Position numbers and translations under genes: made by a program. The notes under the pieces were generated by a model. The model made no database searches. It saw only the letters and a list, made by a program, of their open reading frames with translations, and was not told where the DNA came from. Source: Escherichia coli (GTDB lineage Bacteria > Pseudomonadota > Gammaproteobacteria > Enterobacterales > Enterobacteriaceae). Taken from it: a stretch of DNA of 64,000 nt. The DNA lies in NCBI RefSeq assembly GCF_003334315.1, contig NZ_QOWR01000003.1. One strand, 5' to 3'. This document shows, one piece after another, positions 56,660 to 57,846 of the stretch; position 1 is the first letter of the stretch, and each line of letters opens with the position of its first letter.

Positions 56660-57846
56660 ATGAAAACCTGGATATTTATCTGTATGTCCATAGCAATGTT
56701 GCTATGGTTTTTAAGTACGCTAAGACGTAAACCCAGTCAAAAGAAAGGCTGTATTGACGCCATTATACCTGCGTATAACGAAGGCCCGTGTCTGGCGCAG
56801 TCACTGGATAATCTACTGCGTAACCCTTATTTTTGCCGGGTAATTTGCGTTAACGACGGCTCCACGGACAATACCGAAGCGGTCATGGCGGAAGTCAAAC
56901 GCAAATGGGGCGACCGCTTTGTTGCCGTCACACAAAAAAATACCGGTAAAGGTGGTGCGCTGATGAATGGCCTCAATTACGCCACCTGCGACCAGGTTTT
57001 TTTAAGTGATGCCGACACCTATGTTCCGCCCGATCAAGACGGAATGGGCTATATGCTGGCAGAAATTGAGCGCGGTGCAGATGCCGTAGGCGGCATTCCC
57101 TCTACTGCGTTGAAAGGCGCGGGTCTGTTACCGCGACCGTAAAGTTGCCGATGATTGTTATGAAGCGCACGCTACAGCAGCTCCTGGGCGGCGCACCGTT
57201 TATTATCAGCGGTGCCTGCGGGATGTTCCGTACTGATGTATTGCGTAAGTTCGGCTTCTCGGATCGTACTAAAGTCGAAGACCTTGATCTCACCTGGACA
57301 TTAGTGGCAAACGGCTACCGTATTCGGCAGGCGAATCGCTGCATCGTATACCCACAGGAATGCAACAGTCCGCGTGAGGAGTGGCGTCGCTGGCGGCGTT
57401 GGATTGTGGGCTACGCGGTCTGTATGCGCCTGCATAAAAGGCTTTTATTTAGCCGCTTCGGTATCTTCAGTATATTTCCTATGCTGTTGGTTGTGATTTA
57501 TGGCGTTGGGATTTATCTCACTACCTGGTTTAATGAATTCATCACCACCGGGCCGCATGGTGTGGTGTTGGCAATGTTTCCGCTTATCTGGATCGGCGTA
57601 GTTTGTGTTATTGGTGCTTTTAGCGCCTGGTTTCATCGTTGCTGGTTGTTGGTGCCTTTAGCGCCGCTTTCCGTTGTGTATGTATTATTAGCTTATGCCA
57701 TCTGGATTATTTATGGACTTATTGCCTTTTTTACTGGACGCGAACCTCAGCGCGACAAACCCACCCGCTATTCCGCACTGGTGGAAGCGTCAACCGCTTA
57801 TTCCCAACCTTCTGTCACAGGAACTGAAAAACTATCTGAAGCTTAA
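56660..57846 (+). pseudogene. yaiP: Family 2 glycosyltransferase YaiP with reading-frame break (two ORF pieces 56660..57142 and 57145..57846)
   Basis: N-piece 160 aa: N-terminal TM helix, GT2 core IIPAYNEGP...VICVNDGSTDNT...FLSDADT; C-piece 233 aa in a different frame: RRWRRW motif and about 4 TM helices; frames overlap 57070-57142, consistent with a 1-nt indel relative to an intact gene of about 395 aa. Confidence 0.6.

Follow-up and report, generated by a model that had tools for sequence, protein, structure and literature searches.

The 5' end of yaiX and its probable out-of-frame overlap with yaiP in Escherichia coli

The yaiP/yaiX junction and its candidate starts

A stretch of 64,000 nucleotides (nt) from Escherichia coli (contig NZ_QOWR01000003.1 of the RefSeq assembly GCF_003334315.1), called the window below, carries on its + strand the genes yaiS, yaiP, yaiX and yaiO, followed by frmR and frmA. 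The subject of the present analysis is the 5' end of yaiX, whose reading frame lies in +1 relative to that of yaiP and is open from 57692 to a TAA at 58403-58405. An earlier note on this DNA had observed that the yaiX frame contains no ATG, GTG or TTG between the yaiP stop and the hexapeptide repeats, and had left two options, a genuine out-of-frame overlap of the two genes or a non-canonical start of yaiX. The observation is correct, the next canonical start being a GTG at 57965 inside the domain, and the 80-codon run free of start-type codons is mildly unusual (P ~0.018 at their local frequency of 4.9%). The comparative evidence favours the option of a real overlap, at the ATG at 57713 and not at the ATG at 57695: yaiX probably starts at 57713 and would share 134 nt with yaiP. 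This length, and the 152 nt that would be shared from 57695, agree with the figures of the note. The features that bear on the choice of start are as follows:

57713..57846, + strand: yaiX/yaiP overlap of 134 nt, yaiX in the +1 frame over the yaiP 3' end
57713..58405, + strand: yaiX from its best-supported start, 230 amino acids (aa), predicted stand-alone left-handed beta-helix acetyltransferase
57132..57846, + strand: yaiP 3' part (family 2 glycosyltransferase), read in its native frame once past the deletion described below; stop TAA at 57844-57846
57695..57697, + strand: ATG opening the longest open reading frame (ORF; 236 aa), adopted by KEGG and older GenBank entries; not conserved
57704..57706, + strand: GGA, weak Shine-Dalgarno-like, 6 nt before ATG 57713, formed by a YaiP Trp codon and the following purine
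57722..57724, + strand: in-frame TTG; CTG in locus L025 and TTA in locus L027
57965..57967, + strand: GTG, first canonical start past the yaiP stop; codon 91, within the left-handed beta-helix (Hexapep 72-105)

The yaiX frame thus holds, as start-type codons, ATG 57695, ATG 57713 and TTG 57722, and then only GTG 57965. The two ATG codons had been taken for the only canonical in-frame starts; both are indeed present, but the TTG at 57722 had been overlooked. That TTG was rejected as a conserved start on account of the CTG and TTA found at the same codon in other loci, and GTG 57965 is implausible, as it sits within the beta-helix domain. Within yaiP, the ATG at 57713 falls across the codons for Tyr and Gly (TAT GGA), and with this start the first 44 yaiX codons overlap the last 44 sense codons of yaiP and its stop.

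The product of yaiX belongs to the hexapeptide-repeat acyltransferases, with Pfam Hexapep (72-105) and LbH_EIF2B matches and a left-handed beta-helix from about residue 53. In an AlphaFold2 model of the 230-aa form (mean predicted local distance difference test score, pLDDT, 88.7), residues 21-50 scored 83-89 and the beta-helix, built of regular short strands, above 95. Its relatives in the PDB are left-handed beta-helix acetyltransferases, the best being the C-terminal domain of Sulfolobus ST0452 (E 8e-23). No assignment to a curated functional family was obtained, the best NCBIfam score (TIGR03992 Arch_glmU, 129 bits) being below the cut-off of 292. The hexapeptide-repeat beta-helix of ST0452 (PDB 5z09, 2ggo) and of TIGR03992 can be aligned to YaiX over about 160 residues; however, YaiX differs from these proteins in its sub-cut-off score, in having no nucleotidyltransferase domain and in possessing an N-terminal segment of its own that contains two adjacent tryptophans (WW).

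Constraint in the two reading frames

The comparison covered 24 loci in a codon alignment (18 enterobacterial loci and six outgroups), and 15 genomic loci were fetched from other species. The enterobacterial set comprised two loci of E. coli, E. whittamii, several Citrobacter, Superficieibacter, Salmonella and Enterobacter, together with a plasmid copy from E. coli and a copy in an Ignatzschineria metagenome-assembled genome (MAG). The yaiP sequences were aligned by codon and pairwise differences were counted at 4-fold synonymous sites, the third positions of yaiP being the second positions of yaiX. Except in its last row, the following tabulation refers to 15 loci of the main enterobacterial clade:

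yaiP-only codons: 4-fold diversity 0.63 (2325/3689)
Eight codons after the ATG, 57716-57739: 4-fold diversity 0.065 (26/400)
Next 13 codons: 4-fold diversity 0.62
Two WW codons: 4-fold differences 0/116
Same eight codons in the six outgroups: 4-fold diversity 0.74

The synonymous sites of yaiP are therefore nearly frozen immediately behind the ATG, and this constraint is specific to the enterobacterial lineage. Among 327 eight-codon segments of the non-overlapping part of yaiP, none was as low as the segment that follows the ATG (minimum 0.46, median 0.65). Within E. coli, 90% of the records were at least 99% identical to the window over the overlap, compared with 52% over a yaiP-only and 78% over a yaiX-only control of equal length. 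By these patterns the overlap and its surroundings divide into the following segments:

57713..57739, + strand: ATG and eight codons (M-D-L-L-P-F-L-L-D), constrained in both frames
57740..57778, + strand: linker (codons 10-22 of yaiX in its 230-aa form), under constraint in the yaiP frame only (REPxRDKPTRY); holds ATT 57770 and CAC 57776-57778
57779..57846, + strand: conserved N-terminal segment of YaiX, WWKRQPLIP...YLKL, with the YaiP tail overprinted on it
57787-57843, + strand: YaiP tail (Ala-Ser-...-Glu-Ala), an enterobacterial-specific extension of 19 aa past the ancestral stop position

In the first of these segments the nonapeptide M-D/E-L-L-P-F-L-L-D/E is conserved in the yaiX frame, and the constraint is at the level of the peptide, because Leu3, Leu4 and Leu8 of YaiX are written as TTA, CTA, CTG or TTG across genera while the same substitutions change YaiP radically (L to P, L to T and I to A). 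The 13-codon linker, by comparison, is unconstrained in the YaiX frame, because the 4-fold diversity of yaiP there (0.62) is that of freely varying codons. Over the stretch between WW and the end of yaiP, selection acts on the YaiX frame, and the tail of YaiP is an unconstrained by-product, as judged from the alignment: WW is invariant among all homologues, the residues W, W, R, P, L and L are invariant over this stretch, the yaiX 4-fold sites are saturated (R 68/105, P 71/105), and the YaiP tails differ widely between genera. Conservation confined to the sequence downstream of 57846, which the earlier note had named as the result that would speak against an overlap, was not seen, since W29, W30, R32, P37 and L40 (numbered as in the 236-aa ORF) are conserved upstream of the yaiP stop.

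The ATG at the position of 57713 is present in all 18 enterobacterial loci, embedded in YaiP codons for Tyr/His-Gly, and in each of them the yaiX frame is open from this ATG to WW. The two are 22 codons apart in all of the 15 closest loci but L008, where the distance is 23 codons. The third position of the Tyr/His codon, which supplies the T of the ATG, is T in 18/18 loci, and the three to four preceding codons vary freely. Among the outgroups the ATG occurs at the equivalent position in three of six, as expected for a free choice between TAT and TAC or between CAT and CAC, and in L018 and L011 the open yaiX frame reaches back no further than 12 and 19 codons from WW, respectively. Upstream of the ATG, a TGG followed by a purine is found in 18/18 enterobacterial loci versus 1/6 outgroups, and the resulting GGA at 57704 may act as a Shine-Dalgarno element. 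The RNA around ATG 57713 is less structured than shuffled sequences (z +1.67) and forms no stable structure. Initiation at 57713 would accordingly proceed from a weak GGA in an unstructured stretch, and the nonapeptide is presumably functional.

Junctions in outgroups and in enterobacteria

Seven outgroup loci carry a yaiP homologue upstream of yaiX, namely Pseudomonas viridiflava, Acinetobacter, Sphingomonas, a Sphingomonadaceae MAG and three other proteobacterial MAGs. YaiX homologues at about 50% identity are mostly 204-206 aa long and begin with M-W-W-R/K-E-L, which aligns to H28-W29-W30-K31-R32 of the 236-aa ORF. In all seven outgroups the yaiP homologue ends in ...TG(R)EPxRDKPTRYxxVVx-stop and the yaiX homologue starts with ATG/GTG-TGG-TGG, so that the genes overlap by 14 nt, with the yaiP stop 8 nt past the first W codon (re-measured in five). 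The Arg codon of the TRY motif is the rare AGG or AGA in 6/6 outgroups (L010-L013, L016 and L018), where it forms GAGG or AAGG 7 nt before the yaiX start. On sequence grounds this is a classical coupling junction, in which AGG/AGA serves also as the Shine-Dalgarno element; as an observation in its own right, these six outgroups offer a clear case of an Arg codon choice in one gene that is dictated by the ribosome-binding site of the gene downstream. In the search that reached these distant loci, tblastn alignments extended to query residues 1-4; this was considered as a sign that the whole N-terminus is conserved and was rejected, since the extension merely reflects a +1 translation of the conserved YaiP motif TGREPxRDKPTRY.

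In enterobacteria the ancestral signals have been lost. The codon before WW is neither ATG nor GTG in any of the 18 loci (it is CAC, 57776-57778, in E. coli); the Arg codon is CGN in 18/18 loci versus AGG/AGA in 6/6 outgroups; and in most of these loci the yaiP stop lies 19-24 codons further downstream, which in E. coli places it 65 nt past the first W codon. A second enterobacterial clade, represented by L020-L022 (Salmonella and Enterobacter bugandensis), has a YaiX about 55% identical to that of E. coli and a yaiP product of near-ancestral length (381-385 aa). These loci keep the upstream ATG without the nonapeptide, the peptide that follows it being MELHHSLPD or MDYQASLPD, and they may represent an intermediate state of the start-codon shift.

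Two kinds of well-known arrangement can be compared with this locus. Short coupling overlaps (ATGA, or 4-14 nt) correspond to the ancestral state of yaiP/yaiX, as seen in the outgroups with their fixed 14-nt overlap and embedded Shine-Dalgarno element, whereas the E. coli locus has neither that start, nor that Shine-Dalgarno element, nor the upstream stop, and its 134 nt far exceed typical coupling. Overprinting, which is best documented in viruses, resembles yaiP/yaiX in that new coding sequence arises in an alternative frame and that, segment by segment, one frame is constrained and the other is a by-product. The viral type differs in that yaiP/yaiX is reciprocal, YaiX having gained 21 N-terminal residues over yaiP and YaiP 19 C-terminal residues over yaiX, and in that one nine-codon stretch of yaiP/yaiX is constrained in both frames.

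Competing starts, the gene cluster and a proposed route to a long overlap

The start of yaiX has been annotated in several different ways, which are given below as source, start codon and product:

RefSeq/PGAP WP_024194469: CTG 57824, 193 aa
RefSeq/PGAP WP_002430650: CTG 57812, 197 aa
RefSeq/PGAP, other clusters: TTG, GTG or ATG in related loci, 174 aa and others, the start codon of the 174-aa form not being confirmed
KEGG-derived sets (PMC13058169): ATG 57695, 236 aa
ENA gene calls, a cluster of 1737 sequences: ATG 57713, 230 aa
Curated K-12 record b4579 (split by IS2A): ATG 57713, 134-nt overlap with yaiP

Across E. coli, at least four RefSeq/PGAP starts are in use (CTG for 193 aa, CTG for 197 aa, the 174-aa form and others). 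Among orthologues there are at least five (the window at 57812, 57824 and 57881; L001, L003, L023 and L025-L028), which include two CTG codons, TTG, GTG, an ATG past WW and an ATG at the position of I26. Most of these varied starts remove the conserved WW N-terminus. The same start as proposed here is found in K-12 MG1655 (yaiX, b4579; yaiP, b0363), where position 382872 (complement) corresponds to the ATG GAC TTA TTG codon at 57713 of the window. The curated K-12 record agrees with the earlier note that yaiX is interrupted there by IS2. The note had also called the intact gene poorly documented, which does not hold for its annotation, since the curated record already gives the start with the 134-nt overlap and EcoGene has repaired the gene (PMC3531124), and does hold for experiment, as the literature search turned up no experiment on the start site. 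The overlap is hence already known from curated K-12 annotation, and the present result is a confirmation and not a discovery.

It is improbable that yaiX instead begins at a near-cognate codon nearer to the domain (CTG 57812 or 57824, ATT 57770 or ATT 57863), with a short overlap or none at all. Such a start has the weight of annotation behind it, as RefSeq/PGAP places CTG starts in thousands of genomes (cluster P0008 alone has 1845 members). Conservation would then be expected to begin at or after the start, and this was not found, W29, W30, R32, P37 and L40 being upstream of both 57812 and 57824; the CTG codons and ATT 57863 would all drop the WW...P...L N-terminus, which is conserved in every homologue, selected in the YaiX frame and confidently modelled. 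The RefSeq CTG starts are probably truncations, because the conserved WW N-terminus lies upstream of them. In addition, the AGGA associated with CTG 57824 is just 1 nt away from it, whereas an AAGAG does stand 6 nt before ATT 57863. All 18 enterobacterial loci have ATT, ATA, ATG or TTG at 57770 and, without exception, TAT as the overlapping yaiP Tyr codon, which would suit a start at this position; however, selection for a hydrophobic residue accounts equally well for the series I/M/L, and the AGG that served as ancestral Shine-Dalgarno element has been replaced by CGN in all 18 loci. The selection on the nonapeptide as a peptide, 30-57 nt upstream of 57770, would also lack an explanation. Initiation at ATT, ATA or CTG in E. 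coli occurs at about 1% or less of the rate at ATG, which further counts against this possibility.

A start at the first ATG, 57695, which would yield 236 aa and an overlap of 152 nt, is quite unlikely. It gives the longest ORF and is found in E. coli and E. whittamii, and a plasmid-overexpressed clone of the 236-aa YaiX conferred a phenotype (PMC13058169), although such a clone is silent on the native start. This ATG is not conserved outside Escherichia, its place being taken by non-start codons in Citrobacter (where YaiP has Thr) and elsewhere, with TAT and TAC about equally frequent in the yaiP Tyr codon concerned; it has no preceding Shine-Dalgarno-like element, and the synonymous sites of yaiP between 57695 and 57712 vary freely. 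Least likely is that the conserved 27 nt (57713-57739) are a nucleic-acid element, as an antisense RNA reported to lie inside K-12 yaiP (PMC4666370) might suggest, or a +1 frameshift site (GCC TTT TTT A) fusing YaiP to YaiX, where the T run could in principle permit slippage of tRNA-Phe: the constraint begins exactly at the ATG, whose T and following GA are invariant and are not needed for a frameshift site, the nucleotide changes within the 27 nt leave the Leu residues of YaiX unaltered, a sign of selection on the peptide, yaiP and yaiX are initiated separately in the outgroups, and the sequence shows neither a promoter-like match on one strand or the other, nor a stable RNA structure, nor a slow A-site or rare codon or stop after the T run. 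Between 57500 and 58000, no promoter-like site was detected on either strand and a single terminator-like hairpin was at chance level, and an internal promoter was consequently dropped as the cause of the conserved 27 nt, as was an RNA element for want of a stable structure around the ATG.

Several points weigh against a start at 57713. The linker, being unconstrained in the YaiX frame, has equally the look of untranslated sequence; residues 1-20 of the AlphaFold2 model reach a pLDDT of 51-55 only, and no structural role for the nonapeptide is visible; the Shine-Dalgarno-like element is a mere GGA trinucleotide; and L020-L022 may start near WW, at a TTG or ATG 1-3 codons ahead of it. Because the sequences compared share ancestry, the pair counts overstate the number of independent events, a bias which the control segments, drawn from the same sequences, share and thereby mitigate. 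Finally, the searched literature on the yaiX/yaiP start yielded an EcoGene note and a 2026 overexpression paper, neither of which addresses the start, and no ribosome-profiling, N-terminal proteomic, start-site or mutational data; nor was any published evidence found for the choice of start in K-12.

With regard to yaiP, the strain of the window differs from K-12 in a complementary manner: in K-12, yaiX is cut by IS2 and yaiP is intact, whereas in the window yaiX is intact and yaiP has suffered a frameshift deletion of 10 bp (CGCACATCCG relative to other strains) between 57131 and 57132, as revealed by alignment with three intact E. coli loci. The deletion splits yaiP into ORFs at 56660-57142 and 57145-57846, and the overlap in this strain therefore involves the 3' part of a disrupted yaiP. 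Since 4826 of the 4838 E. coli records that carry this stretch of yaiP fall in the band of 80-90% identity expected from a 10-base gap, they were read as retaining the ten bases, and the lesion appears to be almost unique to this strain, or an assembly error. Because yaiP is a pseudogene here, the yaiSPXO polysaccharide cluster is probably inactive in this strain, and the ribosome traffic over the yaiX start probably absent. In EcoGene, where the yaiX pseudogene was repaired, the repaired gene is described as giving clumping, for which YaiP is required (PMC3531124). The remaining features around the junction are:

56660..57142, + strand: yaiP 5' fragment, ending at the premature TAA 57140-57142 caused by the 10-bp deletion
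55979-56650, + strand: yaiS, PIG-L deacetylase
58407-59180, + strand: yaiO, YaiO-family outer-membrane beta-barrel (TIGR04390, E 3e-54)
about 56516-56635, minus strand: ykiC, a small protein gene lying antisense to the yaiS 3' end and just upstream of yaiP; 39 aa in K-12, called 'hypothetical protein' in other strains

The next gene of the cluster, yaiO, begins 1 nt past the yaiX stop. The order yaiS-yaiP-yaiX-yaiO is kept in every enterobacterial locus compared, and more than 4800 complete E. coli genomes have the same cluster order. The start of yaiS also varies with the annotation, from 558 nt (185 aa) in K-12 to 672 nt (223 aa, GTG 55979) in PGAP and in the open frame of the window. A complete second copy of the cluster, with about 60% protein identity and IS3-family transposases on its flanks, is carried by the E. 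coli plasmid CP159699.1 (L026), and a copy closely related to it was found in the non-enterobacterial Ignatzschineria MAG (L009). Because a relative of the plasmid copy sits in such a genome, the two copies suggest that the cluster is mobile.

If yaiX starts at ATG 57713, the following route to the present arrangement may be proposed. The ancestral state would have been the 14-nt coupling overlap that is still present in Pseudomonas, Acinetobacter, Sphingomonas and other Proteobacteria. In the enterobacterial lineage, AGG would have changed to CGN and the ancestral start codon of yaiX would have been lost, becoming CAC in E. coli; the yaiP stop would also have been lost, so that YaiP reads 19 further unconstrained codons. 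Initiation would have shifted 22 codons upstream, to an ATG supplied free by the YaiP sequence, and the resulting extension of YaiX would consist of the nonapeptide under purifying selection, an unconstrained linker, and then the old WW N-terminus, predicted to pack onto the beta-helix. A broader proposal, for which we consider the case evenly balanced, is that yaiP/yaiX represents a datable reciprocal overprinting, in which MDLLPFLLD, encoded out of frame (+1) where yaiP is most conserved, would have become functional (with purifying selection in Escherichia, Citrobacter, Salmonella, Enterobacter and the plasmid copies) and may tether the acetyltransferase to the membrane glycosyltransferase, while YaiP would have gained a neutral tail of 19 aa.

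Beyond the curated annotation, the present analysis contributes support from comparison, a proposed evolutionary route and the view of the RefSeq CTG starts as probable truncations. The main value of the result should lie in the correction of the shorter yaiX starts that are annotated in thousands of other E. coli genomes. For expression of intact YaiX the 230-aa form would be advised; the 2026 overexpression study used forms of 71 aa and 236 aa. The current understanding of gene overlaps is left unchanged, and the locus would serve as a small, tidy illustration of the way in which a short coupling overlap may grow into a long out-of-frame one through the loss of a start and a stop, with the frame under selection visible in each sub-segment.

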